From Pelosinus sp. sgz500959 (GTDB lineage Bacteria > Bacillota > Negativicutes > DSM-13327), in NCBI RefSeq assembly GCF_042610375.1, contig NZ_JBGJZL010000005.1:76727-100726 (forward strand): a stretch of DNA of 24,000 bases. Direction: 5' to 3'. The translations under genes were made by a program, and so were the position numbers. This document shows, one piece after another, positions 1,749 through 24,000 of the stretch; the first letter of the stretch is position 1, and each line of letters starts with the position of its first letter. A model generated the notes under the pieces. The model did no database searches. It had not been told where the DNA came from and was given only the letters and a program-made list of their open reading frames with translations.

Positions 1749-3623
1749 ATGAATGTGATGATGTATTTAAATAAAGGAATAGAACTGGCTATAAAGGGAG
1801 AATTGGAAGAAGCTGGGGAGCTATTTCGTCAAGCTATTGATTTTGATCCAAATTGTTCAGAAGCTTACAATAATTTGGGATTGGTTTTTAAAGATACGAA
1901 TCGTCTAGAGGAGGCAGAAGGGTATTTTCGTAAAGCCTTAGCTATAAATCCTAATTGCCCAGAGGTGTATAATAATTTAGGCATTGTACAGACAGAGGCA
2001 GATCATTTATATGAGGCCCTTGATTCATTTCACTGTGCAATTGAACTAAATCCTGAGTATCCAGAGGCTTACAATAATTTGGGCATTGCCCAGAGCAAAA
2101 TGAATCTTTGGGATGAAGCAGCATATTCATTTACCAGGGCCATTCAATCGAATCCAAATCATTCAGAGACTCATTTTCATTTAGGTATTGCACAGTTAAG
2201 GCGAAATGATTTAGACGAAGCTATCAATGCTTTTTGCCAAGCGATTGAGTTAAACCCTTATTATGCAGAGGCCTATTTCAATATGGGGGTTATACAGGCC
2301 GAGCTCAAGATGATGGATGAGTCTGTAGGAATGTTCTATCAGGCCATTGAGCTAAATCCACATTTTTATGAGGCCTATAACAATGTAGGCGCTGTTTTGC
2401 GAATTATGTACCAACTTGAGGCAGCGGAATTTTGCCTTCGCCGTGCCATTGAGCTGAGACCCGATTATTCAAAAGCTTATAATAACCTGGGATTAGTATT
2501 AAAAGATCGTTATTGCTTAGCTGAGGCTGAGGTTTGTCTTCGGCATTCCATTGAGCTAGATCCTAATGATCCAGAGACATATAATAACTTAGCTTTAGTA
2601 TTAAAAGATGTTGATCGCTTAGAAGAAGCAGAACGTTGTTTGTGCCGCGCTATCGAACTTCGCCCTGGTTTTAAGGAAGCAGAATTTGCTCTCGCATTTT
2701 TATATTTGCTCCAAGAACAATATAATAAAGGTTGGGGCAAATATAATGAATGGAGGGAGTTTTATGAACCTAAATTGAAAAAAATTGGTTATCCTCATTT
2801 GGATTGTCCTCGTTGGCAAGGAGAAGATTTGACTGGGCGGAAGATTTTATTATTTAGTGACCAAGGATTTGGTGATGCGATCCAATTTGTGCGATATGGG
2901 AAAATGATAGCAGAATTAGGGGCAAAAACGAGTATATGGGTACAAAAGCCTTTAGAACGATTGATTAAAACCTCTATAAATTCTTGTGAAATCTACAACG
3001 ATGACGATACTTCATCGGGACAATTTGATTTTTCTTGCTCATTATCAAGGATGCCCTATATGTTTAATACTGATAGGGAGACAATCCCTCAAGTGATTCC
3101 TTATATACAAACAAGCTGCGAGTGCGCAACTATCTGGCAAGAGAGGCTTAATCAATTGGATGGAGGGCACAAATATCGGGTTGGTGTCGTTTGGGCTGGG
3201 AATCCCAATCATGAAAATGATCGCAATCGCTCGATTGTATTTGACGTATTTAAAGAATTATTTGATATAAATGAAGTAAGCTGGATCAGTTTACAAGTAG
3301 GAAAACGAGCGGAGGATTTACTGCAAACACCTTATCCGGTCCTAGATATTTCTGAACATCTGAGTGATTTTTTTGAAACGGCTGGTGCCATTAATAATCT
3401 TGATTTAGTCATTACGATTGATTCTGCAGTAGCTCATTTAGCAGGGGCGATGGGGAAAGAAACTTGGCTCCTTGTACCTTATAATCCTGATTGGCGTTGG
3501 CAATTAAAACGAGAAGATAGTCCTTGGTATTCAACGATGAAGCTTTTCCGCCAACATGAACCTGGTAATTGGCAAGAGGTTCTGACGAGAGTGAAGGACG
3601 CTCTAAAGAAAGTTCATTTATAA
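1749..3623 (+). CDS. TPR-repeat protein with C-terminal GT9-like glycosyltransferase domain, long paralog (624 aa)
   Basis: SD AGGGAGAG lies upstream. There are nine TPRs plus a capping repeat. The C-terminal domain is collinear with the upstream gene (RWQGEDLTGRKILL..GFGDAIQFVRY..VGVVWAGNP..DLVITIDSAVAHLAGAMGKETWLLVPYNPDWRWQLKREDSPWY). Confidence 0.8.
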   Translation: MNVMMYLNKGIELAIKGELEEAGELFRQAIDFDPNCSEAYNNLGLVFKDTNRLEEAEGYFRKALAINPNCPEVYNNLGIVQTEADHLYEALDSFHCAIELNPEYPEAYNNLGIAQSKMNLWDEAAYSFTRAIQSNPNHSETHFHLGIAQLRRNDLDEAINAFCQAIELNPYYAEAYFNMGVIQAELKMMDESVGMFYQAIELNPHFYEAYNNVGAVLRIMYQLEAAEFCLRRAIELRPDYSKAYNNLGLVLKDRYCLAEAEVCLRHSIELDPNDPETYNNLALVLKDVDRLEEAERCLCRAIELRPGFKEAEFALAFLYLLQEQYNKGWGKYNEWREFYEPKLKKIGYPHLDCPRWQGEDLTGRKILLFSDQGFGDAIQFVRYGKMIAELGAKTSIWVQKPLERLIKTSINSCEIYNDDDTSSGQFDFSCSLSRMPYMFNTDRETIPQVIPYIQTSCECATIWQERLNQLDGGHKYRVGVVWAGNPNHENDRNRSIVFDVFKELFDINEVSWISLQVGKRAEDLLQTPYPVLDISEHLSDFFETAGAINNLDLVITIDSAVAHLAGAMGKETWLLVPYNPDWRWQLKREDSPWYSTMKLFRQHEPGNWQEVLTRVKDALKKVHL

Positions 3624-3627
3624 AGTG

Positions 3628-3657
3628 AAACCAGCCTTCCCGTGGGAAGGCTGGTTT
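3628..3657. terminator. Bidirectional rho-independent terminator between convergent genes
   Basis: A perfect 13-bp stem (AAACCAGCCTTCC / GGAAGGCTGGTTT) closes on a CGTG loop. T-rich sequence follows on both strands. It sits between the stop at 3621-3623 (+) and the stop at 3673-3675 (-). Confidence 0.8.
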
Positions 3658-3672
3658 TGCTTTATCATCGAT

Positions 3673-5031
3673 TTAGAATTTATAAATAAACTGCAGTTTC
3701 CAAAAATCATAGTCGTTGGTAGAAGCTGTTTTATCTTTTATAGTGGCATATTGAAGTTTTCCTGTCATATTTTTACTAAAGGCATAACGGTAGGCAAAAT
3801 CAAGGGTTTTATTGGCATTGCTATTTCCTTCATCGACAGTATCAATTGCGGTATATGCTGTGTAGATACTGTTTTTCTGAAGAACGAAATACTGAGTAGT
3901 AAAGTTTTGGTCACCTTTATCTTTTAGAGATTGGGCACCATAGACAACTTTCGCCATGCCAAATGCACCATCTGAAGTCGCCTCATTGTTTTTACCATAT
4001 TCACCGCTAATTGAGAGCTTATTGTTGAATTTCCAGCCTAAATTACCATATGTATAATTTAATAGTTTTTTATCATTTTTCCAATTTCTAAAGGTGGCAG
4101 CACCGACGGCCCAGTTCAGTTTACCGCTTTTAGCAGAAGCTGAAATGGCTTGAACATCAACGTTAGAAAAATCTGCAGCATAAGTTCCAGCAGCACCGCC
4201 TGCTTTATTATCAAAAGCATATCCGCGTACGCCACGTGCAAAGCGGCCGTGCTTGACATCAAAATTCACACCATTTGATTCCCAGGCAAGTTTTGCACCA
4301 TCAAAACTAAAGAATGCACTATCAACAATCATATCCTCGTTATCAAGGTCGAGTGCTTGACGTCCTAGCGTTGCTTTTACTGCACCGATCTTGGTGGTAG
4401 CGAAGAAACGATCAATTTGTGCACCATAGGTATTACTAGATGAGTTGCCTTGCGTACCACCAAGTATAGAATTTGCCGCTCTAAAGTTATCTTGGGTAGG
4501 GGCAACATTGACTATACGCATTCCAATGGTTGTATTATCATCAACTTTGGCAGTTCCATTCATTCTAAACCAAGAAGATTCTGTATGGGAGCCTATTGAT
4601 GTTGGAGCATTTTTCATGCCTTTTATCTTTTCTTGTACCAATAAGGCTCCAGAAAATTTAATTGTAGACTGATTTTTCTCCACTTTAGTTAGGCGAGTAT
4701 CTAGGTTTTCAATTTTATTCATTTCTAGAGCATATTCGTTAGCTAATTTGTCGATGAGGGCTTTTTGTGCGATATTGGCTTTGTTTTCATTAATCATCGC
4801 CTTGTAAACGATCTGTGCCATTTCACCGCGACTCATGGTTTTGTCAGTGACAAATTTACCGTCTTCGTAACCATCAATAATGCCAGCCTTCGCAAGATAA
4901 GTCAATGCCTCATAAGACCAGTGATTAGTAGGAACATCTGTAAATATTGGGGTGGACGTCGCGGCCCATACTGGACTTGCGATATTCAGGGTGAGTGCCA
5001 AAGCGGAACCCACAATTAAATTTTTTTTCAT
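3673..5031 (-). CDS. SLH-domain outer-membrane porin (OmpM/Mep45-type) with signal peptide
   Basis: I prefer the internal ATG at 5031, which has SD AGGGGG 8-9 nt upstream, over the ORF-track start at 5124. The product starts MKKNLIVGSALALTLNIASPVWA|ATS (signal peptide). An SLH motif follows (TDVPTNHWSYEALTYLAKAGIIDGYEDGKF), then a coiled-coil linker. The rest is Gly/Asn/aromatic-rich with alternating beta-strand character and ends ...LQFIYKF (C-terminal Phe OMP signature). Confidence 0.85.
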   Translation of the reverse strand: MKKNLIVGSALALTLNIASPVWAATSTPIFTDVPTNHWSYEALTYLAKAGIIDGYEDGKFVTDKTMSRGEMAQIVYKAMINENKANIAQKALIDKLANEYALEMNKIENLDTRLTKVEKNQSTIKFSGALLVQEKIKGMKNAPTSIGSHTESSWFRMNGTAKVDDNTTIGMRIVNVAPTQDNFRAANSILGGTQGNSSSNTYGAQIDRFFATTKIGAVKATLGRQALDLDNEDMIVDSAFFSFDGAKLAWESNGVNFDVKHGRFARGVRGYAFDNKAGGAAGTYAADFSNVDVQAISASAKSGKLNWAVGAATFRNWKNDKKLLNYTYGNLGWKFNNKLSISGEYGKNNEATSDGAFGMAKVVYGAQSLKDKGDQNFTTQYFVLQKNSIYTAYTAIDTVDEGNSNANKTLDFAYRYAFSKNMTGKLQYATIKDKTASTNDYDFWKLQFIYKF

Positions 5032-6510: not shown

Positions 6511-6623
6511 TAGAAATATGTAAATAAAGTTTTGGGAAAATGTACAAATTTTTCAGAAAATGGTAAAATATTTTTCAAAGCTATAAAAATTGCATAAAAA
6601 TGGAAATGTAAAATTTGTTTTTT
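6511..6623 (+). promoter_or_regulatory. Candidate upstream activating / intrinsically bent region: reiterated GAAAATG..AAA..TTTT units
   Basis: Similar units occur at ~6513 (GAAATATGTAAATAAAGTTTT), 6536 (GAAAATGTACAAATTTTT), 6556 (GAAAATGGTAAAATATTTTT) and 6597-6602 (AAAAATGGAAATGTAAAATTTGTTTTT). They lie directly upstream of the -24/-12 promoter. The function is inferred only. Confidence 0.3.
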
Positions 6624-6626
6624 GTA

Positions 6627-6643
6627 TGGCATAACACTTGCAT
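6627..6643 (+). promoter_or_regulatory. Sigma-54 (-24/-12) promoter
   Basis: TGGCAT-AACAC-TTGCAT matches the consensus TGGCAC-N5-TTGCW with correct GG/GC spacing. It lies ~30 nt upstream of the ATG at 6672 of a sigma-54-dependent activator/PTS operon. Confidence 0.8.
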
Positions 6644-6671
6644 AGTATATAAGCAGAAGAGGGGTTTGGTA

Positions 6672-9554
6672 ATGGATTTAAAAGAAAAAATGTTAGGTAT
6701 TATAAGAACTGAAAACATAAAAGATCCTTTTACAGATGCAAGACTAGCAAAAATGTTATCAATCACAAGAGAAAATATTACTGTTTTGCGTAAGGAATTA
6801 AATGTTGGCAATTCCAGAGAGCGCCGCAAACCTCACTTAAAAAAGGCTATTGAAAATATCGTAAAACAGAATAGTAAGCTCAATATTACGGAGATCACTA
6901 AAAAATTAATGGAATCAGGGTTTGATGTATCACGGCATGTAGTCGAAGAATTCTTTAATGATGTTGACATGGAGAGTCCACAAAAGGAAGAAAAAGTTTC
7001 AGTGTTACAAGATCCTTTTTCAACGTTAGTGGGATATAGCGGTAGTCTAGAAAAAAGTGTTATACAATCCAAATCTGCAATTTTATATCCACCATTTGGT
7101 TTATCGACGTTGATTATTGGGGAAAGTGGTGTTGGAAAAACACAATTTGCTGAATGTATGTATAATTTTGCAAAACAGAAACAAATTATCGCAGACCATG
7201 TGCCGTTTATCGTTTTTAACTGTGCTGATTATAGCGATAATCCACAACTGCTATTATCACTGTTATATGGTTATAAAAAAGGTGCTTTTACTGGCGCTGA
7301 CAGTGATACAGAAGGACTCGTTGAACATGCCAATCATGGGATTCTCTTTTTAGATGAAATTCATCGGTTACCACCTAAGGGGCAAGAAATTCTGTTTTCA
7401 ATATTAGATCGGGGGCAGTTTCGTCGATTAGGTGAAACAAAAGATGAACGCAAAGTAAAAATTATGTTTATCGGTGCTACGACCGAAAATATTGAATCTA
7501 GTTTGTTGCTCAGTTTTAGAAGACGTATACCCATGATTATTTCGATTCCATCCTTACATGAAAGAGCTTTTGTTGAAAAAGTTGAAATCATTTATGACTT
7601 TTTTCAACAAGAGTGTAATCGAATTAATGTGAAAATTTTTGTAGAGTCGAAGGTCATTGAAATTTTGACACTGAAACGATTTAACGGTAATATCGGTCAA
7701 TTAAAAAGTACAATACAAGTTGTTTGTGCGCGGGCATTTATGAAGAATATTGGTAAGGATCATGAAATGATCAGTATAGGGTATGAGGATATATTAGAAA
7801 CAAATAGTATCCAACATGATTTTATTTTGGAAGATGTTAATATCGTCGAAGTTAGAAACTACATACAAGATATGTTATTTATACCCTTTGTTAACAATAA
7901 TACTCACGTTGCTAAGAAAAACCAAGATATGGAGTGTTATTTACCAGAGGATTTTTATCGGCAGATTGAAAAAAAGTATCATGAATTAACTAAATTACAT
8001 ATTGATTTTTCTGAAGTCAAAGAAATATTATGGACGTTTATTATGAACGAATTTAGTAATCTTGAAGCCGGTCTGAATGGCAAATACAAATATTTTTCCT
8101 TAACTGAATTAGTTAATATCGTAGATAAAGAAATTATTAATTTAGTGAAAAAAGTAAGAATGCTATTAGTTACGGAGCATATGTACAACGATATTAATGA
8201 AAAAATTTTTATTTATTTGGCCATTCATTTAAATGAAACGATTAAAAGAATACGCTTAAAACAACAAATTATTAATATCAATTTATCAAAAATAAAAAAG
8301 GATTTTACGAAAGAATATCACTTAGCCAGTCAAGTTGGTACTTGGCTACAGGAAATAAAAAATGTAGAAATACCTGATGATGAAATTGGCTTTATTGCTA
8401 TGTATATTAAGGCAGCGATCCAAAATAAATTACCGAAAAATCGGGTCGGTGTGATTGTTGTATCTCATGGGCGAATTGCTACAGAAATTATCAACGTGGT
8501 GAGAGCTTTACTCAATGTAAATTTTCCTATTGCTATTGATATGCCTTTGGATGAAAGTCCATCTATTATCTATGAAAAAATTATTGGGATTTCTAAAATG
8601 ATAGATGAAGGTAGGGGCATCTTATTTTTAGTTGATATGGGTTCTTTGATTAATGCTGGTAAAATTGTGACGGACAAATTAGGCATACCAACTCAAACTC
8701 TTGATCGAGTAGATTTGTTGACCGTAATTGAAGCCGTACGTAAAGCATCGATTCCTGAGAATAGTTTAAGTGAAATATATTCTAGTTTAGTAAAAACTCG
8801 TTATAACTATCCTTTGTTGAGCATTGAAGAAACGAGTAAACCCATCGCAATTGTTGCATTATGTTTGACTGGTGAGGGAACGGCTTATCATATTCGTCAA
8901 ACGATTGAACGAAAGTATGCAAATGTAACCGTTTTCCAAGTCGGTATCATGGACGAACAATTACGAAATAAAATTAAAGAAATCCAAGAAAAATTTAAAA
9001 TCTTGGCGATCATCGGTACCATTAACCCAGAAATTGAAGGCATTAATTTTGTTGTCTATGAGCCTTATTTACTTGAAAGTGGTATTAGAGAGTTTGATGC
9101 AATTTTAAATATTGAAAAAGGTAAAGACTTGGCAGATTTTTCAGAAGACGATTTATTGGTTTTTGAATCAGAGATTCGTTCACAAAAAGAATTAATTGAA
9201 GTGATGTGTTTACTACTCATTAATAAAGGTTATGTGAAAAAAGAGTTTTTACAATCAGTTTTACATCGTGAAGAGATGGCACCGACTTTCTTAAAAGGAG
9301 AAATTGCCATTCCTCATGGGGACTCTCACATTGTTAATAAATCAGGGATTGTAGTTGCTAAATTAAAATCTCCCATCCCTTGGGGAAGTGGTCATGTAAA
9401 TGTTGTATGTTTACCAGCATTTAAAATTAATGACAAAAATGTTGTTAAGCGTCTTTTAAAGCCTTTCTTACATCTAGAGTTCATTGAAAAGTGGCGCACG
9501 ATAACCGATATGAACACTTTTAAAGAAATGCTATATGAGAAGATGAAAGAGTAA
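6672..9554 (+). CDS. Sigma-54-dependent, PTS-controlled transcriptional activator (LevR family) with C-terminal EIIA(Mtl/Fru)-type domain
   Basis: I prefer the start at 6672 (SD GAGGGG upstream), because the ORF-track start at 6615 would lie upstream of and span the -24/-12 element. Domains by motif: N-terminal HTH regions; an AAA+ domain with Walker A GESGVGKT, GAFTGA loop (7281-7298) and Walker B LFLDEIH; one PRD; an EIIA-Man-like segment (RVGVIVVSHGRIA); an EIIB-Gat-like segment (IAIVALCLTGEGTA); and an EIIA-2-like C-terminus (GEIAIPHGDSH). Confidence 0.85.
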   Translation: MDLKEKMLGIIRTENIKDPFTDARLAKMLSITRENITVLRKELNVGNSRERRKPHLKKAIENIVKQNSKLNITEITKKLMESGFDVSRHVVEEFFNDVDMESPQKEEKVSVLQDPFSTLVGYSGSLEKSVIQSKSAILYPPFGLSTLIIGESGVGKTQFAECMYNFAKQKQIIADHVPFIVFNCADYSDNPQLLLSLLYGYKKGAFTGADSDTEGLVEHANHGILFLDEIHRLPPKGQEILFSILDRGQFRRLGETKDERKVKIMFIGATTENIESSLLLSFRRRIPMIISIPSLHERAFVEKVEIIYDFFQQECNRINVKIFVESKVIEILTLKRFNGNIGQLKSTIQVVCARAFMKNIGKDHEMISIGYEDILETNSIQHDFILEDVNIVEVRNYIQDMLFIPFVNNNTHVAKKNQDMECYLPEDFYRQIEKKYHELTKLHIDFSEVKEILWTFIMNEFSNLEAGLNGKYKYFSLTELVNIVDKEIINLVKKVRMLLVTEHMYNDINEKIFIYLAIHLNETIKRIRLKQQIININLSKIKKDFTKEYHLASQVGTWLQEIKNVEIPDDEIGFIAMYIKAAIQNKLPKNRVGVIVVSHGRIATEIINVVRALLNVNFPIAIDMPLDESPSIIYEKIIGISKMIDEGRGILFLVDMGSLINAGKIVTDKLGIPTQTLDRVDLLTVIEAVRKASIPENSLSEIYSSLVKTRYNYPLLSIEETSKPIAIVALCLTGEGTAYHIRQTIERKYANVTVFQVGIMDEQLRNKIKEIQEKFKILAIIGTINPEIEGINFVVYEPYLLESGIREFDAILNIEKGKDLADFSEDDLLVFESEIRSQKELIEVMCLLLINKGYVKKEFLQSVLHREEMAPTFLKGEIAIPHGDSHIVNKSGIVVAKLKSPIPWGSGHVNVVCLPAFKINDKNVVKRLLKPFLHLEFIEKWRTITDMNTFKEMLYEKMKE

Positions 9555-9583
9555 TTTAAAAAATGAAGGAGTGGTTGTAGATT

Positions 9584-10030
9584 ATGTTGGATTTGGATTT
9601 AGTTGTATTAAAAATGAAAGCAGAAACTTCAAGTGAAATTATTCGAAATCTAGGTGGATTGATGTTGTCGAAAGGCTATGTAAAGGATAGTTACATTGAA
9701 GCGGTGTTAGAAAGAGAAAAAAATCTTCCAACAGGACTCCCCATTGATGATTTTTGTGTCGCTATTCCTCACACTGATTCAGAGCATGTGAATCAATCAA
9801 ATATCGGGATTGCAACCTTAGAGAAGCCAGCCATATTTCACTCCATGGTTAGTCCAGAAGAAATATTATATGTAGAATTAGTTTTTTTATTAGCAGTGAA
9901 AGATCCTATCTTGCAGCTTGAATTATTAAAGAATCTCATGTCAGTTTTTCAAAATAAGGAATTATTGATCGCATTGAGGAATGCCACTTCCAAAGAGGAG
10001 GTTAGGGAGTTATTAAGTTGTCTTGGCTAA
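9584..10030 (+). CDS. PTS EIIA component, fructose/mannitol/galactitol (PTS_EIIA_2) type
   Basis: The 148-aa product has the phosphorylatable His context FCVAIPHTDSEHV. It is paralogous to the regulator's C-terminal domain. SD GAAGGAG lies upstream. Confidence 0.8.
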   Translation: MLDLDLVVLKMKAETSSEIIRNLGGLMLSKGYVKDSYIEAVLEREKNLPTGLPIDDFCVAIPHTDSEHVNQSNIGIATLEKPAIFHSMVSPEEILYVELVFLLAVKDPILQLELLKNLMSVFQNKELLIALRNATSKEEVRELLSCLG

Positions 10031-10075
10031 AAACAAGACAATATAATAAATAAAATATAGAAAGGTGGAACAAAA

Positions 10076-10390
10076 ATGAGAAGGTTTAATGTGCTGTCAG
10101 TGTGTGGTTCGGGTACAGTTACTTCATCAATGATTGCGGAAAAATTAAAAGAAGCAATGGAGGAGCGTGGTATCAAAATTACGGCGACGGAAGCTAAACC
10201 AACAGAGGCTTTGAATTTGGCAGAAGGTGGTCGATTTGATTTTATTACGCACACCAGTCCCCTGCCAGCCGCAAACTATGGAATTCCTACAATTAATGCA
10301 GTCGGTTTTTTGACAGGTTTTGGTGAAGAAGAATTTTTGGTAGAAGTTATGAGTGTGATCGAAGAGCTAGGCGGAAATAGCGGCAAATAA
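10076..10390 (+). CDS. PTS EIIB component, galactitol (Gat) family
   Basis: The 104-aa product starts MRRFNVLSVCGSGTVTSSMIAEKLKE, showing the active-site Cys in the CGSG-x-x-TS P-loop typical of GatB-type EIIB. SD AAAGGTGG lies upstream. Confidence 0.8.
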   Translation: MRRFNVLSVCGSGTVTSSMIAEKLKEAMEERGIKITATEAKPTEALNLAEGGRFDFITHTSPLPAANYGIPTINAVGFLTGFGEEEFLVEVMSVIEELGGNSGK

Positions 10391-10417
10391 AATAGTGAAA
10401 AATGAGGGGGAATCAAT

Positions 10418-11839
10418 GTGTTTCTTCAACTATTAAAAGATGTATTTCAGACTTTTGGCTCACCAGTTTTTGTTCCAGTTATCATCTTTATTATTGCTAA
10501 AATATTAAAAGTAACGAACAAAAAGGCCTTCTTTTCTGCATTATATGCAGGAGTAGGGCTCGAAGGGTTTACTCTTTTACTAAATGCTTTTACACCCATT
10601 ATTACACCTGTAGTCAAAAGCATGGTCGAGAATACTGGAATTCAGCTTCCTGTATTTGATGTGGGCTGGCAAGCGACTGCACTTGTTGCTTACTCCACAG
10701 AAGCTGGCATGGTTTTTTTAGGCGTTGGTTTATTAGTGCAAACAATACTATTTTTGACGCGATGGACTTCTATTTTCCAACCTGGTGATTTATGGAACAA
10801 TTATTCTTATATGGTATGGGGCTCTATGGTTTATATGGCAACAAAAAATATGTGGTTGTCTCTAGGATGTATGATTTTATTAAATATGTATAGTTTGCTT
10901 ATTGCAGAGTTATTGGCTAAGAGATGGTCAACCTATTATAAATATCCTAATTGTACAATTATTGCCATGCATAATATTGAGGCCGCTATTTTTACTGTTG
11001 TTTTTGATCCATTACTCAATGCTTTTGGTTTAAATAAAGTTAAATTGAGCCCTGAAGAACTGCAAAAAAAATTAGGATTCTTTGGTGAACCTGTTTCCTT
11101 AGGACTGTTATTAGGTATTTTTATTGGTATCATGGGAAATTTCAAAAGTTTAGGAACATTGGCTGCATGGGGTCAAATTACGACAATGGGGATTGCTACT
11201 AGTGCTATTATGGCTCTTTTTCCTCGCGTAGCCGGTATATTTGCCCAATCTTTTCTCCCAATCACTGAGGCTGCTCGGAAATCTGTTAAGAATGATAGTA
11301 AATCACGTCAATGGTTCCTGGGGGTAAATGATGCGACTGGATATGGAGAACCTGCCACTTTAATCTCTGGTATCATTCTCATTCCCATTATGGTTTTTAT
11401 GGCTCTTGTATTACCAGGAAATGAAGTATTACCCGTTGTTGACTTGTTAGCATTACCTTTCATGGTACAAGGTATTGTGCCACTGGTAAATGGTAATATC
11501 TTTAAAGTCCTTATTACAGGTGCAATTTGGTTTAGTGCAGGTCTGTATATGTGTACGTATACGGCACCCATGTTCACAGATATTTGTTCATCAGTGGGTG
11601 TTCATTTACCAGTCGGTGCCTTACTAATTACTAGTTTTAATATTTTAGGAAAACCTTTAATGGGATTAGTATTTTTAGCCTTCTTAAGTCAGTCCCCACT
11701 ATTAATTGGTATCGCAGTAGCAGTATATTTCATTTTATATCTATTATTCAGAAAGAACAAAGAAGCTGTATATGATTACTTAGATCAAAATGCCATGAAA
11801 AATACAGTGGAAGATCGGACAAATGAAATAACTGCATAA
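10418..11839 (+). CDS. PTS EIIC permease, galactitol (GatC) family
   Basis: GTG start with SD GAGGGGG 8 nt upstream; the nearby ATG at 10416 is out of frame and terminates after 6 codons. The 473-aa polytopic protein is collinear with GatC-type landmarks (..DVGW.., KLGFFGEPVSLG, VLPGNEVLP..DL). Confidence 0.85.
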   Translation: MFLQLLKDVFQTFGSPVFVPVIIFIIAKILKVTNKKAFFSALYAGVGLEGFTLLLNAFTPIITPVVKSMVENTGIQLPVFDVGWQATALVAYSTEAGMVFLGVGLLVQTILFLTRWTSIFQPGDLWNNYSYMVWGSMVYMATKNMWLSLGCMILLNMYSLLIAELLAKRWSTYYKYPNCTIIAMHNIEAAIFTVVFDPLLNAFGLNKVKLSPEELQKKLGFFGEPVSLGLLLGIFIGIMGNFKSLGTLAAWGQITTMGIATSAIMALFPRVAGIFAQSFLPITEAARKSVKNDSKSRQWFLGVNDATGYGEPATLISGIILIPIMVFMALVLPGNEVLPVVDLLALPFMVQGIVPLVNGNIFKVLITGAIWFSAGLYMCTYTAPMFTDICSSVGVHLPVGALLITSFNILGKPLMGLVFLAFLSQSPLLIGIAVAVYFILYLLFRKNKEAVYDYLDQNAMKNTVEDRTNEITA

Positions 11840-16719: not shown

Positions 16720-16969
16720 GTTAAAAAAATATTGGGAAAATTATGACATTTAGAGGGATTTAATATTATTATGTCGAAATCGATTAGTGAAGTAAATAAC
16801 GATATAGATTAATCTTTCAGAAGGTAGGGATTCAAAACCGTGGAAGATCGTAATTTAATGATTATCAGCTTGTATTTTGTACGTTTACATGAGGATACCT
16901 GGTAGTTTTTTTGTTATACAAGAAGAGGCAAAGAGTGAATTGATGAACATATAAAAAGGAGTGAAATCA

Positions 16970-18685
16970 ATGAAATTTTTTGATGATCTGAAAGTAAGCC
17001 TTAAAATTGGTGTATTGATCATGGTTGCATTACTAGCGATTGGCGTTATTGGTTACACGGGACGTTATTACCTAGAAATTTCTGAAAAAGATATGGATGT
17101 AATGTATGAAGAGCAGTTGATCCCAATTAAACTTTTAAATGAATGCAGCACACTTGTAGCCAAGGGGAATGCATTCACCTTGGCACTGATGCTCACTGAG
17201 GATGATAGACAAAATGACCAATTGAAAAAAAATATTGAAGATGGATCTAAGCAAATCACTGCTTCTTATAAAGAAATTGAAAGAATTAATTTTGACAATA
17301 AAGGAAAAGAACTGCTGGCTAAAATACAGATATCTAGAGAAAAATATCGAGTCGTGAGAAATCAAGTCGTTGAGTTGGCATTACAAAATAAAAACTCTGA
17401 AGCTTATGCTATATACATAACGCAGGTCGATCCTCTTGCTTTGCAATATATGAAAGAGTTACGAGAACTGAGTGATTACTATTCTGAACTGTCAAAAAAA
17501 ATTGATATTGCTAACCATGAAGCATCAGAAAAAGTCATGCAACTGATGACAACGATATTGACAGTTTCTTTTATCATATTGATCATCATTGGGTGGTATA
17601 TAGCTAGGAACATTACCAAACCACTAAATATCATGGTAGAAATTTGTGGAGAATTTGCAGCGGGAGATTTTCGCGACCGACCACGCCAGGTCATTCGGAA
17701 AGATGAAATTGGTCAATTAGCTGATACCTTAGCATCTACACGCACCAGTCTTCGTGCATTGATGAAGCAAGTCAATCAGTCTTCTGAACGATTGCTTGCC
17801 TCTTCAGAGGAGTTGACTGCTAGCGCTGGTCAGTCTGCTGAAGCTGCCGACCAAGTGGCCCAATCCATTGTTGATGTAGCAAATGCAGCAGATGAAGAAT
17901 TAAGAATCGCTACTCATACATCGGCGATTGTACAAGGAATAGCTACAGGTATCAAACGGGTTGCAACGAATGCCAATGAAGTGGCTGATCAATCCATGCA
18001 GGCTGCTAATAAGGCTGAGCAAGGTAATCAATCTGTAGATAAAGCCATCACTCAGATGAGTAAAATTGAACAGACGGTGAGTACTTCAGCTCAAGTTGTT
18101 GTCAAATTGGGAGAACGTTCGAAAGAAATTGGCCAAATTATCGATACCATCTCGGGAATTGCTGGGCAGACCAATTTATTGGCTTTAAATGCTGCGATTG
18201 AAGCGGCTCGTGCAGGAGAGCAAGGTCGGGGGTTTGCCGTAGTCGCAGAAGAAGTCCGTAAACTTGCAGAACAATCTCAAGCTGCAGCCAAGCAAATTGC
18301 CACGCTCATTGGTGAGATTCAAGATGATACAGGCAAAGCCGTAGTTGCGATGAGTAATGGTACGCGAGAAGTCAAGACCGGAGCAGAAGTTGTTAATGCT
18401 TCTGGTCTTGTATTCCAGGAAATTGTCGTCATGGTAACTCAAGTATCCGTTCGAACCCAAGAAATCTCTGAAGCCATAAAAGAAATGGCTAGTAATAGTC
18501 AGCAAATTGTCGGATCTGTGCAACAAATCGATGAACTTAGCAAAAAAACGTCAGCAGAGACTCAGATCGTTTCTGCTGCCACACAAGAACAATTGGCATC
18601 CATGGAAGAGGTCGCTTCATCCAGCCAAGAGTTATCTAATTTAGCAATGGAACTGCGCGAAGCTGTCGCCAAGTTTGAACTTTAG
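16970..18685 (+). CDS. Transmembrane methyl-accepting chemotaxis protein (4HB sensor, HAMP, MA domain)
   Basis: I prefer the ATG at 16970 (SD AAAGGAG 8 nt upstream) over the GTG at 16961. TM1 is [18 protein letters not shown] helical ~160-aa periplasmic region follows, then TM2 [18 protein letters not shown] and a HAMP domain. The canonical tip is [36 protein letters not shown]. Confidence 0.9.
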
Positions 18686-18951
18686 TCTCAAAGATTAAAA
18701 TGTATACCTGACAAGAAGTCTTATCAGGGATGATGAGCCTTCTTTTATAGAAGATATTTTATTGATAAAAGTCAACGTAACTGAGAGCGTAGATTGAAAA
18801 ATTAACCAAATATTAATGTATAAATAATAGCTAAGCTTATTTTTTATGTTATTGTAGAATAACAGATATCAATCATTTATCCTAATTGGCAAATAAAAAA
18901 TACTGTCAATTATCCACATAAGGGACGTTTTTTTAGAAAGGGGAGGATGTT

Positions 18952-19326
18952 TTGTATAAGTCACTGAAGATTTTGATTAGCGATGATTCCTTATTACTGC
19001 GAAAAAAATTAAGAGAAGAGCTGGAAAAACTAGGTTGCCAAGTGTTTGAGGCTAAAGATGGAGAAGAAGTGGTTGAAGCCTATTGTCAATGTCGCCCAGA
19101 TGGAGTCTTTATGGATATTGTTATGCCCAAGGTGGGCGGTCTAGAGGCTTTAAAAGAAATTAAAGAAATCGATGATAAGGCAAAGGTCGTTATGCTTTCT
19201 TCTCTGGGAACAGCTGCTGCCTTGTTAAAAGCGCTCAAATTGGGTGCAATTGACTTTATTCAAAAACCATATAATAGCAGTCAAATAGAGAATGCTGTCA
19301 ATAATATCAGTCGGAAGGAGAATTAA
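18952..19326 (+). CDS. cheY: CheY-like single-domain response regulator
   Basis: TTG start with SD AGGGGAGG 5 nt upstream; the nearby ATG at 18947 is out of frame and stops after 6 codons. The 124-aa product has acidic pocket ILISDDS, phospho-acceptor context GVFMDIVMP, and MLSS and QKPY (conserved Ser/Thr and Lys). Confidence 0.85.
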   Translation: MYKSLKILISDDSLLLRKKLREELEKLGCQVFEAKDGEEVVEAYCQCRPDGVFMDIVMPKVGGLEALKEIKEIDDKAKVVMLSSLGTAAALLKALKLGAIDFIQKPYNSSQIENAVNNISRKEN

Positions 19327-20193
19327 ATGTCAAGTCGATTTTTTGCCCAATATATACTAAATCAAGGGGTGCTGACTCCAGAACAAGTACAGGAAGCTCT
19401 TGAAGATGGACGCTCAGTTCAAGTGAAATTAGGAGTACTCGCTATTAATGAGAAGTTTTTGACTGCTGTACAAGTTGAAGAAATTCACAGATTACAACAT
19501 ATGGTTGACAAACGATTTGGTGAGATCGCCATCGATGAAGGCTATTTGTCAGAAGAGCAATTGATGATTCTCTTAGCTGCACAAAAAAATAGCCATCTTA
19601 ATTTTGGACAAACATTAGTTGATAAAGGATTCATGAATTTAGAACAATTAGAACGTGTTTTGGATGAGTATAAAAGAGAAAGTAATTTAGATCAAGAGTC
19701 GGATTTAGCTATCCTTAAAGAAGGTATTCGTACCCAATTAAATCTTTCACAAGAAGATGAAGAGGTAGAATTATATTATGATTATATATTACTTTTTCTT
19801 AGAGCAATCGTTCGTTTCTTGGATGCCAGTCCTTTAGTCATTCCAACTGTCCATGAGCAGAAACAGGATCAGTGGTCTGCTTTGCAAAGTATGACTGGAG
19901 ATGTCACTCTGCAGAGCAGTTTTACTGCTGATGATAAAGTTTTGCTAGAATTGGCACGTCGTTATAGTGGTGAAGAGATTCATGAAATAGATGAACTTGC
20001 CCTTGATAGCATAGGAGAGTTTTTAAATGTTACGAATGGACTTTTTTGCATTAATCTTTCGAATGCGGGGTTAGAACTTGATTTACATCCGCAAAGCGTT
20101 ACAAAAAATGCGGATTTTTTAATGAAAAAGAACCATACAGTAACGATCGATACTGGTTTTGGTAGAATCAATTTAGTAATGGCTAGGATGTAA
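19327..20193 (+). CDS. CheX-type CheY-P phosphatase domain fused to four N-terminal MshEN-like (T2SSE_N-type) motifs
   Basis: The ATG directly abuts the cheY stop, and SD GGAAGGAG lies inside cheY. The C-terminal IDELALDSIGEFLNVTNG..(x)..HP fits the CheC/CheX/FliY signature D/S-x3-E-x2-N-x~22-P. The N-terminal 115 aa form four 24-residue units separated by 5-residue spacers. Confidence 0.7.
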   Translation: MSSRFFAQYILNQGVLTPEQVQEALEDGRSVQVKLGVLAINEKFLTAVQVEEIHRLQHMVDKRFGEIAIDEGYLSEEQLMILLAAQKNSHLNFGQTLVDKGFMNLEQLERVLDEYKRESNLDQESDLAILKEGIRTQLNLSQEDEEVELYYDYILLFLRAIVRFLDASPLVIPTVHEQKQDQWSALQSMTGDVTLQSSFTADDKVLLELARRYSGEEIHEIDELALDSIGEFLNVTNGLFCINLSNAGLELDLHPQSVTKNADFLMKKNHTVTIDTGFGRINLVMARM

Positions 20194-20237
20194 ATAAGAA
20201 TATTGTAGGAGATTTTTCATGGTTTATTTATAGTGAG

Positions 20238-20268
20238 AAAAGCAGGCGGATCGCCTGCTTTTTATTTT
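20238..20268 (+). terminator. Rho-independent terminator of the cheY-cheX-like operon
   Basis: An 11-bp GC-rich stem (AAAAGCAGGCG / CGCCTGCTTTT) closes on a 3-nt loop. It is followed by TTTTTATTTT. Confidence 0.85.
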
Positions 20269-20639
20269 AGTGTGGCAGTTATTAAAAGCCCTTACATACA
20301 TTTTTTGTTACTATTCAGGAATTCGATAAGTTTAATCTATAAACAATATTCGTTCCTTTTTTGAAGGAAATGCCAATAATTTGTCGAAGTTTTAGTTATT
20401 GTACAATTTATAAAAAAATCGTAATTTGCACATTGTACGAGAATGAAAATTAGGGAAAAGATGACGGAAAAGCAAGACAAGAGTAGTGGGTAAAAATACA
20501 GAAAAATCTGAAATTTTAACAATAATATGTGAAGTTTATTAAAATGCCGTTGGAGGAAACAAAGGATTTTGGGATATAATCCAGCAGGTAGCTACTACGA
20601 GTGAGGAACAAGCCACTGGTAGGTAGGAGGCATAGGGGC

Positions 20640-22349
20640 GTGAGATATGGATTTCCCATACAAGAACTAGGGAAAATTAAAATATTTTCAGTAGAAGCAA
20701 TAGACTCTTTAGCAAAAATAGCAGGCGAGATATTGGAGTTGAGAATAACTCTTACTATTGCCCAGTCTCGGTTAATCATTGACGGCATCATGAACCAGTT
20801 ACATATTCTCAAGAAACAAGCTGCATTTTTTGGCTTAATGGAAATGTTGATGTTAATTCGCCAAACCCAGTATATGCTAGAGGCTATGCGCTCTGGAAAT
20901 TTGCAAGGGGACCCTGGGGCAGTGGAGATATTGCTAGATGCCAAAAATGTATTAGAAGAAATGATACGTGAATTTGGCGAGGCAAGTATAAAGCACCAGG
21001 GAGCTAAAGGCTTAGAGATCGAACTAGCTTGCGCCCAGGATACAGAATGGCTTATCACTTTCATTGAGCAACTATTATTGAAGAAAAATAATGCTGCTCT
21101 TATTCTAGTTCCTCAAGCATTAGTGAGCAAATTACCTGCGATTATTTATACCCCATTGATAAAACTAGAGATTCTTGAAAATAGTACAGAAAACCATCAA
21201 GAGGATAAGGAAACAGAATCTCTAAGTATAGTCAATGATGATTCAATAGAAATATTCAATAGCAAATCGACTACGGTAAGTGATGAAAAAATAGAAAAAC
21301 TACTCACGATCATTAGAGAATTAGGAAATAAAGATCATGCTTTTCATCAGATGTCTCGCAAACTGACAATAGAATATAATTTGCCTAATTTATCCCGCGA
21401 AACGAAGGCTATAGGACAATTTATCAATCGCATTGCAGCTGAGTTAGAAGAGGCGGTCATGTCCATGCGCAGGGTTGAATTAGGACTGATTTTTCTACAA
21501 TTCCCTCAGATGATTCGTGATATTGAATTGCAGACCGGAAAGAATATTGGTTTGACCATGGAGGGCGAACATGTCACAGTGGATAAAACCATTGTCAAAG
21601 AGTTATATAATCTGCTACTCAAGATCATATGCAACATGGCTAACTTTAACATTGAGGTTCCAGCAGAGCGAAAGGCAGCGGGTAAGGAAATTCAGGGACA
21701 TATCTGCCTTACGGCCTATTCTTCAGGTAACCGAATTGTAATTGAGGTTGAAAATGATGGTCGCAGTATGAGAGGAGGTGAGGCAGACGCTGAAGTGCTA
21801 GAAATTTCTGATTTAATGCTTAGTATAAATGAAGTGTATTACCAAATGGATGCTTTGCCGGCTAATCTAGAAATGATCAACCTGCCAGATAAAGGTAGTA
21901 AAATAAGGATTACTTTACCACCTTTCAGCATGAGATGTAATGGGTTATTAGTAGAAACATCTGGTGAATTATTGGCTGTGCCTTTAGATAATGTGGTTGA
22001 GATTATAAGAGTGACTTGTAAGCAATTGATAACTAGACGTGGGCGTCAGCTCCTATATCACCGGGGTGAAGTGCTCGGGATCATATCTCTGGCTACGATC
22101 TTAGGGAAGATTGAACAGCAAGATAATGGAAGTGTGACAGTATTGATCGTCGCAAATGGACAGAATAAAATTGGTCTCATCGTCCATAAACTGCACAATG
22201 AACAAGAGATTGTGTGTAAATCCTTACCAGACTACTTGAATCATAGTGAGTACATAGGAGGCGCTGCTGTAACTTGCGATGGTAAGGTAGCGCTATTGCT
22301 TAATATTTCGGCAATGATCAAAAAAATGAATTCTCAATTGTTATCATAA
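20640..22349 (+). CDS. CheA-like protein: HPt (P1) - linker - dimerisation (P3) - degenerate/truncated HATPase (P4) - CheW-like (P5)
   Basis: I favour the GTG at 20640 (SD GGTAGGAGG 9 nt upstream) over the ORF-track GTG at 20601, which has no SD. HPt is ..IMNQLHILKKQAAFFGL..MLEAMRSGNL. P3-P4 aligns with the CheA landmarks MSMRRVELGLIFLQFPQMIRDI..GKNIGLTMEGEHVTVDKTIVKEL. The N-box region is KIICNMANFNIE, G1 reads NDGRS, and no G2/lid is present. P5 is LLVETSGELLAVPLDNVVEI...IGGAAVTCDGKVALLLNI. Confidence 0.75.
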   Translation: MRYGFPIQELGKIKIFSVEAIDSLAKIAGEILELRITLTIAQSRLIIDGIMNQLHILKKQAAFFGLMEMLMLIRQTQYMLEAMRSGNLQGDPGAVEILLDAKNVLEEMIREFGEASIKHQGAKGLEIELACAQDTEWLITFIEQLLLKKNNAALILVPQALVSKLPAIIYTPLIKLEILENSTENHQEDKETESLSIVNDDSIEIFNSKSTTVSDEKIEKLLTIIRELGNKDHAFHQMSRKLTIEYNLPNLSRETKAIGQFINRIAAELEEAVMSMRRVELGLIFLQFPQMIRDIELQTGKNIGLTMEGEHVTVDKTIVKELYNLLLKIICNMANFNIEVPAERKAAGKEIQGHICLTAYSSGNRIVIEVENDGRSMRGGEADAEVLEISDLMLSINEVYYQMDALPANLEMINLPDKGSKIRITLPPFSMRCNGLLVETSGELLAVPLDNVVEIIRVTCKQLITRRGRQLLYHRGEVLGIISLATILGKIEQQDNGSVTVLIVANGQNKIGLIVHKLHNEQEIVCKSLPDYLNHSEYIGGAAVTCDGKVALLLNISAMIKKMNSQLLS

Positions 22350-22377: not shown

Positions 22378-24000
22378 ATGGAAAAAAAATTAGCAAAGCC
22401 CAATACAGCTGCAGGTCATTCAATCACTAGTAAAACTGGTGCAAATATTGATTCTGCTGAACAAATGAGTCTTAAACGGGACTTGGCGAAACGTAGAGCC
22501 ATGGATAAAGTGCGGTCAAGAACGGTAGCAAAGCAACAACAGTTGGCTGAGCGTATTGCGACTGCTACAGAACAAATGGCAGCGGGCATTGAGCAATCCA
22601 GCAACGCTGCTGCAGAACTAGCTGGTACTATGACTCAGATTGCGACTGGTGCGGAAGAAGCGTCATCAGCTGCTGAAGAATGTCGAGCAGCCGTCAATCA
22701 GATCGAAAAAGCAGCGATTGCGGCTGATGAACTTGTTAGAATTTCCTTGGAGAAGGTTAATGTAGCTCAGACGTTGGTGAAAACAACAAGTACTGATGTA
22801 GAGCAATTGATTAATGGTGTCAAAAATGCTGCTGATACCAACATGCAGTCTGGTCGATTGGTAGCCCAGCTTGAAAACCAATCCGTAGAAGTAGGCAACA
22901 TTGTGGAAGCAGTGGTGCGCATTGCTGATCAAACTAATCTACTGGCTCTAAATGCGGCGATTGAAGCAGCGAGAGCTGGTGAACATGGTCGTGGTTTTGC
23001 CGTCGTTGCTGATGAAGTGCGCAATCTAGCGGAAATTTCCGAGAAATCGGCTCGTGATATTCGTGCGCTGGTCGGCGAGATTCAAGATAATGTGAAGGTC
23101 GTTGTAAAAGATGTAGAAGATGCTGGTAATGCGGCCAATGAGGAAGTGGAAAAAGCTAAAAAGATCACTTCAGATCTTGCTAAAATTGAAAAAGATATGA
23201 ATGGTGTGCAAAAAGGTGTTACTGAGGTTGCACAAAATTCTAGAATCGTTACTGAGGGCACTAAGGAGTTTTTGGCAATTACCCAGCAAGTGGCTGCTGC
23301 CAGTGAAGAGCAGGGTGCCGCGACAGAAGAAATTAGTTCGACAATTAATGAACAGAATAAAGCCTTTAATGAAATGAGTACTGCTGCTAACGAATTATCT
23401 GAACTAGCAGAACAACTCAAAATATCCACTGATGCTCAAAAATCCTCGGAAGAATTGGCATCAGCTTCTGAACAATTGTCAGCCAATGTAGAAGAAGCAA
23501 GTACGGCTGCTGGGCAAATCATGAAGACGATGGAACAGTTAGGCGAAGGGGCTAAGATGCAAGCTGAGCTGACAACAAAAGGAGCTACTATCTCTGAGCG
23601 CCTAGCGTCTGCTGCTACACAAATGAAAGTTCGCGCGCAAGAGTCAGAAGGGAAAGTCAATGAACTACAGTCCATCTTAGTGATTAATAAAGAGGAAGTC
23701 GATAATATTATTAGTGGTGTTTCTGGTGCTGCTGAGGCTAGCTTTAAATCAGCGCAAAATATTAAACGACTAGAAGATACCACAAGACGCATTGATAAAA
23801 TTGTGGATGCGATTGTCAATGTGACCATTCAAACCAATATGCTCGCTGTTAATGGCTCGATTGAAGCGGCGCGGGCTGGTGAATATGGACGTGGATTTTC
23901 AGTTGTCGCTGGTGATATTCGTACTTTGGCTAACGAATCAGCCGATAATGCAGATAAAATCAAGGATCTAGTGCGCAATATTCAAAATCAAATTCAACAG
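22378..24000 (+). CDS. Soluble methyl-accepting chemotaxis protein with two tandem signalling (MA) hairpin domains, 3' end outside window (DosM-like)
   Basis: The ATG at 22378 (SD AAAGGGGA upstream) opens 541 codons that run to the window end. This ORF is absent from the ORF track because no stop is reached. There is no hydrophobic segment. Tip 1 is [38 protein letters not shown] (22921-23037). Tip 2 is [39 protein letters not shown] (23824-23940). Confidence 0.85.

Follow-up and report, generated by a model that had tools for sequence, protein, structure and literature searches.

The gene pair described here lies in a 24,000-nucleotide (nt) stretch of the Pelosinus sp. sgz500959 genome (contig NZ_JBGJZL010000005.1, positions 76,727–100,726, forward strand), referred to below as the window, with all positions counted from its first letter. 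It consists of a gene for a single-domain CheY-like receiver (18952–19326, + strand; 124 amino acids [aa]) and, adjoining it, an open reading frame (ORF) with an ATG start (19327–20193, + strand; 288 aa) whose product joins four MshEN-type hairpins, a linker helix and a CheX domain, as judged from hidden Markov models (HMMs) and an AlphaFold2 (AF2) model. The fusion protein matches "chemotaxis protein CheX [Pelosinus sp. sgz500959]" at 100% identity. We propose that the operon encodes a nucleotide-gated CheX phosphatase together with its partner CheY, with cyclic di-GMP (c-di-GMP) tuning the enzyme, a proposal that in our judgement stands an even chance of being correct.

An earlier note on this DNA knew of no characterised example of the architecture, but the domain string and the c-di-GMP idea had both been published as a prediction in 2016. 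Supplementary Table 4 of Wang 2016 lists "(MshEN_N)2 - CheX", exemplified by Geobacter lovleyi Glov_2742 (ACD96455) and given as occurring in "Deltaproteobacteria, Firmicutes"; the row carries no reference and no experiments, and the MshEN_N–CheX architecture is explicitly read there as implying a role of c-di-GMP in chemotaxis (PMC5013675). Since the architecture was catalogued in 2016, the Pelosinus protein is a candidate second-messenger input and not a new kind of protein. As far as the literature searched shows, the pairing with a receiver, the asymmetric conservation of the hairpins and their probable nested packing are new here. Glov_2742, whose four motifs are aligned in Supplementary Fig. 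3c of Wang 2016 (PMC5013675), has equal length and the same order of four hairpins and CheX. Its units correspond one to one (KFFGQFLVEQ, KLGEMAVAMG, KLGDLLVELG and YIGEALVKVG, against RFFAQYILNQ, KLGVLAINEK, RFGEIAIDEG and NFGQTLVDKG in the query). Glov_2742 is a Geobacter member of the family and the query a Pelosinus (Negativicutes) member; the domain string alone had been published on the family.

The CheX domain and its receiver

The C-terminal part of the fusion protein (aa ~147–288, nt 19765–20190, + strand) has a CheX fold in the AF2 model, which was built with 102 homologues and reached a mean predicted local distance difference test score (pLDDT) of 88.7 and a predicted template modeling (TM) score (pTM) of 0.83. 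Foldseek matched it to 3HM4, 1SQU and 6VPW over ~150 columns (E 8e-10 to 6e-9; TM [target] 0.76–0.78), whereas the TM scores against CheC and FliY were 0.5–0.55, and the fit to CheX was better than that to CheC, FliY or FliM. Pfam CheX (PF13690) covered aa 185–269 at E = 9.7e-9 and 35.6 bits against a gathering score of 27, and phmmer against the Protein Data Bank (PDB) found T. maritima CheX (1SQU/1XKO) at 6e-6. The stand-alone CheX proteins of T. maritima (1XKO, 1SQU), Borrelia burgdorferi (3HZH, with CheY3) and Vibrio (6VPW) have the same fold (TM 0.72–0.78) and share with the query one E-x2-N on a long helix and a conserved Gly turn, and in the case of T. maritima also N-x20-P. They are ~150 aa long, whereas the query adds an N-terminal extension of 146 aa, and identity to them is just 16–22%.

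The active-site signature reported in the earlier note, D227-x3-E231-x2-N234-x20-P255, is present on a long helix at nt 20005–20091 (+ strand), and its alignment to T. maritima CheX (DELALSAIGELGNMTAG...P) is free of gaps. The x20 spacing is that of T. maritima CheX, since phmmer placed no gap here against 1SQU/1XKO, and the concern that x20 departs from x22 was dropped; the CheX-type signature is given elsewhere as D/S-x3-E-x2-N-x(20–22)-P, and in Borrelia CheX the residues E96 and N99 reach into the active site of CheY3, where they orient the water for hydrolysis (PMC12887009). Conservation was counted in 144 representatives clustered at 50% identity, and motif matches in 198 family members. 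E231 is Glu in 126 representatives and Asp in 14, N234 is Asn in 141, N237 is Asn in 138, G238 is Gly in 140 and P255 is Pro in 119; position 227 is Asp in 74 and Ala in 52. E231, F232 and N234 are invariant in the 102-sequence alignment. Reading of the sequence showed that the first CheX helix (aa 147–165) lacks another E-x2-N, which makes the domain CheX-type rather than CheC-type; a single active site on a CheX fold fits the CheX class, whereas CheC and FliY have two sites. Members of the CheX class are expected to dimerise by way of their central beta-sheet, and the query was modelled as a monomer. Phosphatase activity on the neighbouring receiver would be the natural expectation for such a domain.

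The receiver (TTG start, stop TAA at 19324–19326) is the presumed substrate. It matches Pfam Response_reg at E = 9.4e-27, and in the PDB its closest matches are CheY proteins (4IGA and T. maritima 1TMY, E 3e-26 to 4e-26). Its sequence carries DD11-12, the acidic pocket, D55, S83, F102 and K105, with S83 the counterpart by position of CheY Thr87.

As the earlier note had observed, the fusion ORF opens directly after the receiver stop, with its ATG at 19327. A Shine-Dalgarno-like AAGGAG (19315–19320) lies within the end of the receiver gene, 6 nt 5' of that ATG. A strong intrinsic-terminator-like hairpin followed by a T run (20237–20263, + strand) is found 44 nt past the fusion stop; it has a 12-bp stem with 6 GC pairs and then ATTTTAGTGT, and this putative terminator closes the two-gene unit. 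Upstream of the receiver gene, a consensus scan gave a weak sigma-70-like promoter candidate, TTGGCA-16-AATTAT (18886–18913, + strand), in a region where the count of such promoter-like sites equals the shuffle expectation. With adjoining ORFs, a 3' hairpin and a weak promoter-like site at the 5' end, the two genes look like one bicistronic unit. The TTG start of the receiver lies 4 nt after a strong GGGGAGGA both in the window (18952) and in a sibling Pelosinus locus (L003, position 4626), and an out-of-frame ATG (18947–18949) overlaps at the receiver start region of the window.

The pairing was surveyed in 82 related loci fetched from Negativicutes, Clostridia and Bacilli, with neighbours scored within 5 kb. 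A homologous single-domain receiver (~120–150 aa) stands immediately 5' of the fusion gene and on the same strand in 81 of them, mostly with gaps of −8 to +17 nt, and a Geobacter-type locus also has a receiver directly 5' of its fusion gene. The tie to the upstream CheY-like gene, for which the earlier note had suggested a survey of this kind, is real and general.

Four MshEN-type hairpins and their probable packing

The N-terminal extension contains four 24-residue units (aa 5–28, 34–57, 63–86 and 92–115; nt 19339–19671) separated by spacers of exactly five residues, just as the earlier note had transcribed them. NCBIfam NF053729 ("c-di-GMP_motif, MshE-related"), a curated model of the 53-residue motif, matched the protein in two stretches at E = 6.5e-21 and 73.9 bits against a cut-off of 38. 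The MshEN and CheX models (NF053729, PF13690) both scored above their curated cut-offs, in agreement with the domain calls of that note. On fragments, NF053729 gave 51.8 bits for units 3+4 and 34.5 bits for units 1+2. In the PDB, phmmer found T. thermophilus PilF (1.5e-7) and V. cholerae MshE (5HTL, 2e-5). Pfam matches of the repeats to FumaraseC_C, DUF4388, MU2_FHA and DUF2949 were below the cut-offs and were taken as noise. The likeness to the MshEN_N domains of MshE, PilB and PilF (5HTL, 8PDK) lies in the 24-residue hairpin motif, the five-residue spacer and the four-helix bundle. The MshEN_N of MshE has two hairpins, whereas the query has four, of which the middle two alone are canonical and which are probably nested rather than in tandem; the query also differs from MshE in the His/Asn in place of Leu29 and in lacking both an MshEN_C/T2SSE_N1 subdomain and an ATPase.

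Units 2 and 3 keep the K/R-h-G start and the terminal Gln, and units 1 and 4 are degenerate, a division that had been drawn correctly from the query and that holds family-wide. Unit 2 (19426–19497, + strand) is near-canonical (K34-L35-G36...Q57), with Lys or Arg at position 1 in 134 of the 144 representatives, a turn Gly at residue 43 in 116, and G36 and Q57 nearly invariant (137 and 143). Unit 3 (19513–19584, + strand) is fully canonical, RFGxxAIxxGYLxxxxLxxxLxxQ, and the strict motif is found in 169 of the 198 family members; its position 1 is Arg or Lys in 120 representatives, G65 is kept in 139, the turn residue G72 in 128 and Q86 in 137, and F64, G65 and Q86 are invariant in the 102-sequence alignment. 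The degenerate unit 1 (19339–19410, + strand) starts with [YF]-F-G in the family and FFA in the query. It has Tyr, Phe or Leu at position 1, where Arg/Lys is missing, Gly at position 3 in 126 representatives (Ala in the query), a turn Gly at residue 14 in 60 and a variable position 24. In unit 4 (19600–19671, + strand), likewise degenerate, position 1 is Asn in the query and Leu, Ser, Gln or Val in the family. Its position 3, Gly in the query, is Gly in 53, Ser in 40, Ala in 19 and Val in 13 representatives, the turn residue G101 is kept in 84, and position 24 is Tyr (Tyr or Phe in the family). The query departs from the family twice, with A7 for the unit 1 Gly and K43 for the turn Gly of unit 2. 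In unit-to-unit comparisons, which did not discriminate between origins of the array, units 2 and 3 are most alike (38.7).

The 24-residue units are probably not arranged as two tandem MshEN_N domains. A different packing is likelier on four lines of evidence, namely conservation, the register of the match to 5HTL, covariation and a model of units 1+2: units 2 and 3 probably form an inner MshEN_N bundle and units 1 and 4 an outer pair, an arrangement whose structural evidence comes from comparisons of monomer models without coordinates. The conservation pattern of the units is A-B-B'-A'. Besides crystal structures of CheX, the AF2 model matched 5HTL, a complex of MshE with c-di-GMP of the kind that the earlier note had proposed for comparison; the Foldseek match to 5HTL covered 56 columns at an rmsd of 0.9 Å and a probability of 1.00, with 34% identity over 56 columns and 33% over 58, equal to 19 identities. 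Ungapped registers against 5HTL give 19/56 for units 2+3, 21–22/56 (38–39%) for units 3+4 and ~20% for units 1+2, and the register of the match is therefore that of units 2+3, since 19 identities equal the 2+3 count and not that of 3+4 or 1+2. A model of units 1+2 alone was unstable (five models, pLDDT 64–80, pTM 0.57, spacer helical) and differed from 5HTL by 4.1 Å at 21% identity, the value predicted for the 1+2 register. In the full-length model, units 2 and 3 begin their first helices at L35 and F64, as needed for free guanine-binding backbone amides, whereas those of units 1 and 4 reach three residues further N-terminally. An extension of the unit 4 helix and a linker helix (aa 116–146, nt 19672–19764, + strand; helices at 105–121 and 125–138) lead to the CheX domain and have the lowest confidence in the model (pLDDT 65–74).

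Covariation was assessed by mean-field direct-coupling analysis of 320 sequences (effective number 221). The expected intra-hairpin contacts were recovered (positions 7–17, 12–20 and 3–17; z 7.8 to 13.5). Among the top 30 inter-unit couplings, 11 join units 2 and 3, 11 join units 1 and 4, three join units 3 and 4 and none joins units 1 and 2, where chance would give five each. The couplings between units 1 and 4 (V21–F93, E23–K100, L16–F102 and D27–K100) and between units 2 and 3 (E52–E71, L56–E71 and G36–L83) use identical position pairs (19–9 and 23–9), and E23–K100 and E52–E71 are salt-bridge-like, with E-K/D-R exchanges and charge swaps. This bias was stable under other sequence weightings, in random halves and with average-product-corrected mutual information (MI-APC); covariation of this kind does not separate contacts within a chain from those between the chains of a dimer, and the control of phylogenetic bias is only partial. 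The top inter-domain pairs of a full-length coupling analysis (F64–W183, L38–N261 and hubs at Q123) proved on cross-tabulation to be gap or indel artefacts and were discarded.

Proposed regulation by c-di-GMP and its alternatives

We hypothesize that the receiver is phosphorylated on D55 by a kinase that is probably a CheA, though none is reliably linked to it in most genomes. The long CheX helix would put E231 and N234 into the catalytic pocket of the receiver and align the water for attack, as the Borrelia CheX–CheY3 complex shows. The central hairpins (aa 34–86) are predicted to form a canonical MshEN_N four-helix bundle that could hold c-di-GMP through stacking by K34 and R63, the backbone amides of G36, V37, G65 and E66, the side chains of Q57 and Q86, and two clusters, L35/L79/L83 and F64/V50/H54. 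The outer hairpins (aa 5–28 and 92–115) would pack together in the same geometry, their polar contact residues lost. Binding of c-di-GMP to the central bundle may then reseat the helical module on the CheX domain or the dimer, by way of the outer hairpins and the linker helix, and so raise or lower hydrolysis of the receiver phosphate. In chemotaxis signalling the pair would serve as a portable phosphate drain that a second messenger can tune.

The residues themselves give grounds for a ligand site. Units 2 and 3 retain the c-di-GMP-contact residues of MshE (G36, Q57, F64, G65 and Q86, invariant or nearly so), Lys or Arg at position 1 is retained in these two units only, and the contact roles of the equivalent positions in MshE are those described by Wang 2016 (PMC5013675). 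The genomic context is modest support. In three related Pelosinus loci, whose orthologous receiver–fusion pairs are 71–73% identical to that of the window, an HD_5 (HD-GYP-type) gene stands directly 5' of the receiver on the same strand, and in one of them (L003) a HAMP-GGDEF-EAL gene lies 1.8 kb downstream of the pair; the c-di-GMP-type genes beside these pairs are at 3428–4528 and 7679–9490 in L003, 3513–4496 in L004 and 2025–3011 in L006.

Related control of chemotaxis or enzymes has been described in other proteins. The other catalogued link between MshEN and chemotaxis is Aeromonas veronii CheA (EKB11881), which has a single MshEN_N and places the input on the kinase rather than on the phosphatase; its MshEN_N fragment binds c-di-GMP with a Kd of 2.6 µM in the isothermal titration calorimetry (ITC) table of Wang 2016 (PMC5013675). 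The nearest functional work concerns V. cholerae PlzC–CheX, where a CheX phosphatase is under the control of a c-di-GMP receptor protein. That receptor, PlzC, is a PilZ protein separate from CheX, and its inhibition of CheX works in trans without depending on c-di-GMP (PMC12799141), whereas the query is fused in cis. In the E. coli glycosyltransferase–MshEN protein NfrB, which is not a chemotaxis protein, a fused MshEN does activate the enzyme in cis.

A number of observations weigh against c-di-GMP gating. The central bundle is not fully canonical: the query has Lys (K43) at the Gly turn of unit 2, and unit 2 position 21, H54 in the query and Leu29 in MshE, is His in 83 and Asn in 31 of the 144 representatives; L29R and L54H are listed among the changes that abolish binding in XpsE (Wang 2016, PMC5013675). 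A fragment of units 2+3 scored 35.6 bits with NF053729, just below the cut-off of 38. Under the relaxed motif of Wang 2016, [RKPN]hGxxhhxx[GAS]hhxxxxhxxxhxx[QNKRYWST] in two copies joined by five residues, units 3 and 4 of the query match and units 1 and 2 do not; among the 198 family members, unit 3 matches in 173, unit 4 in 27 (query included), unit 2 in just three and unit 1 in none. With unit 3 alone regularly canonical by this motif, c-di-GMP binding is not to be assumed. Genes for c-di-GMP turnover were found near the pair in eight of the 82 loci by a crude motif scan, with no clear enrichment, and a claim of enrichment was dropped because this figure is close to a background rate that was roughly guessed and not computed; an HD-GYP-type gene immediately 5' of the pair was confined to the three related Pelosinus loci. 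No MshEN_N–CheX member appears in the ITC table of Wang 2016 (PMC5013675), and full-text literature searches found no later characterisation of the family; together with the 2016 listing, this leaves the idea of c-di-GMP acting through CheX as a published prediction. The kinase of the receiver is a further difficulty. Within 5 kb of the pair, none of the 82 related loci showed a CheA, and the CheA-like neighbour in the window looks kinase-dead from its sequence. A methyl-accepting chemotaxis protein (MCP) was found within 5 kb in just 12 of the loci. Given these counts and the receivers in 81 loci, the constant unit is the receiver–phosphatase pair, usually as an orphan module, and the che-like surroundings in the window are atypical for it.

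Because the ligand site is not fully canonical, the main rival is that the hairpins are a nucleotide-independent helical scaffold for dimerisation, localisation or partner binding, attached to an ordinary CheX phosphatase, in the manner of GspE/XpsE N-domains without c-di-GMP binding. Besides the His/Asn of unit 2 and the regular fit of unit 3 alone, units 1 and 4 lack the Arg and Gln contacts, XpsE lost binding by comparable substitutions, some of the architectures in Wang 2016 have no recognisable motif (PMC5013675), and c-di-GMP genes are not clearly enriched nearby. We take this explanation seriously and nevertheless consider it unlikely, as the near-invariance of G36, Q57, G65, Q86 and the Lys/Arg at position 1 is hard to account for by structure alone, the model superposes on ligand-bound MshE at 0.9 Å and the whole protein exceeds the NF053729 cut-off. 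A second rival is that the module binds some other ligand, such as 3'3'-cyclic GMP-AMP (cGAMP), pGpG or a different guanine nucleotide, or that an intercalated dimer of c-di-GMP sits between its inner and outer bundles, in which case the signal would be something other than plain monomeric c-di-GMP. MshEN_N does bind cGAMP weakly (Wang 2016, PMC5013675), nested packing would place two "sites" close together, and the family conserves H54, an invariant Q95, Tyr/Phe at residue 5 (unit 1 position 1) and Y115 (unit 4 position 24), which have no counterpart in MshE. Backbone-amide recognition of guanine is kept in units 2 and 3, however, as seen in the helix starts at L35 and F64, and positive evidence for any alternative ligand is lacking, which makes this reading improbable. 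It would be more surprising still if the CheX domain were inactive and served as an adaptor that binds the receiver phosphate and reports the phosphorylation state to another partner. The Ala at the D/S signature position in about one-third of representatives and the modest Pfam CheX score would fit such a role, but E-x2-N, N237, G238 and P255 show the conservation of active CheX enzymes and the fold matches CheX at a TM of 0.77; we give it very little credence.

Returning to c-di-GMP gating, a more elaborate form of the proposal is that the MshEN_N formed by units 2 and 3 is inserted in the inter-motif loop of a degenerate bundle of units 1 and 4, creating a composite pocket. A ligand there, c-di-GMP or possibly its dimer, would switch a dedicated CheY/CheX pair that serves as a self-contained, second-messenger-tunable phosphate sink in Bacillota and Desulfuromonadota, independent of che operons. 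We put this version forward tentatively and expect that it is more probably wrong than right.

Neighbouring genes, family and implications

The receiver is preceded in the window by a transmembrane MCP (16961–18685, + strand; 4HB_MCP, HAMP and MCPsignal by Pfam), which sits where the sibling Pelosinus loci have the HD-GYP-type gene. Downstream of the fusion lies a gene for a CheA-like protein with a degenerate ATP-binding domain (20601–22349, + strand) and a promoter-like site of its own at 20516–20545; a likelier start is GTG 20640, after TAGGAGG at 20623–20629. The protein has an Hpt domain in which the phospho-accepting His is kept (LHILKKQAAFFG), a dimerisation domain and a strong CheW-like domain. 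In its ATP-binding domain ~40 residues are absent between the G1 and G2 boxes compared with T. maritima CheA, the G2 box reads ISDLMLSINEV in place of GRGVGMD and the N box KIICNMANFN in place of HLLRNAIDHG, and Pfam HATPase_c is matched at E = 0.094 only. It is probably a pseudokinase or scaffold. A soluble chemoreceptor with two MCPsignal stretches and two hairpin-tip motifs follows from 22378 (+ strand) and runs past the window end at 24000; no sensor or transmembrane region is recognisable in its visible part. Further upstream, 6615–11839 (+ strand) holds a LevR-like sigma-54 activator (Sigma54_activat, PRD, EIIA-man, PTS_EIIA_2), then EIIA, EIIB and EIIC-GAT genes, a HAD hydrolase, an Fe-ADH-like gene and a 670-aa transketolase-like ORF named from sequence without Pfam. 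This is an ordinary sugar phosphotransferase system (PTS) operon, unrelated to the fusion gene.

The query fits an architecture of four MshEN-type motifs followed by CheX in ~290 aa, which is widespread. We found 257 full-length homologues at E ≤ 1e-5, and at E ≤ 1e-30 a profile search against 1.84 billion cluster representatives yielded 429 clusters (50% identity); of 150 clusters among the matches listed, almost all were covered over their full length. At least 395 relatives turned up when one genome per species was scanned, and some genomes have two copies. Carriers include Pelosinus, Propionispira, Sporomusa and Lucifera in the Negativicutes; Clostridium bowmanii, Hungateiclostridiaceae, Lutispora and Desulforudis in the Clostridia; and Robertmurraya, Cytobacillus, Ureibacillus and Paenibacillus among the Bacilli. 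Two receiver–fusion copies on different contigs occur in Propionispira raffinosivorans (L010/L077), P. arboris (L011/L072) and Sporomusa sp. KB1 (L073/L081), and two also in one Bacillota metagenome-assembled genome (L022/L059); the module is paralogously expanded in some Negativicutes. In one Geobacter-type copy (L083, 486–1400), possibly a pseudogene, a frameshift splits the gene: the 196-aa product stops short of the helix with the CheX active site, and that helix is encoded further on in a different frame. No receiver precedes this copy. Seemingly shorter or "single MshEN_N–CheX" versions among the Geobacter-type hits (P0131, P0136, P0138 and P0139) were rejected as real architectures and traced to a frameshifted copy, a gene broken up by masked bases and wrongly called starts.

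c-di-GMP is known to reach chemotaxis through receptors (Tlp1), the methyltransferase (MapZ–CheR1) and the motor (YcgR, MotI and the Cle proteins). A route on CheA is represented by one tested fragment, the Aeromonas MshEN_N (Wang 2016, PMC5013675). If the proposal is true, sensing of the messenger in cis by a phosphatase would add a control point of a separate kind, and a very direct one, acting on the lifetime of CheY phosphate. The family is large, the proteins are small and soluble (288 aa, with a 124-aa substrate) and cultivable Bacillus-group and Clostridium species carry them, so that the 2016 prediction is open to simple assays. With the phosphatase so constantly paired with a receiver of its own, usually at a distance from any CheA, the role of that receiver becomes a question; it may be a motor signal or a phosphate sink.

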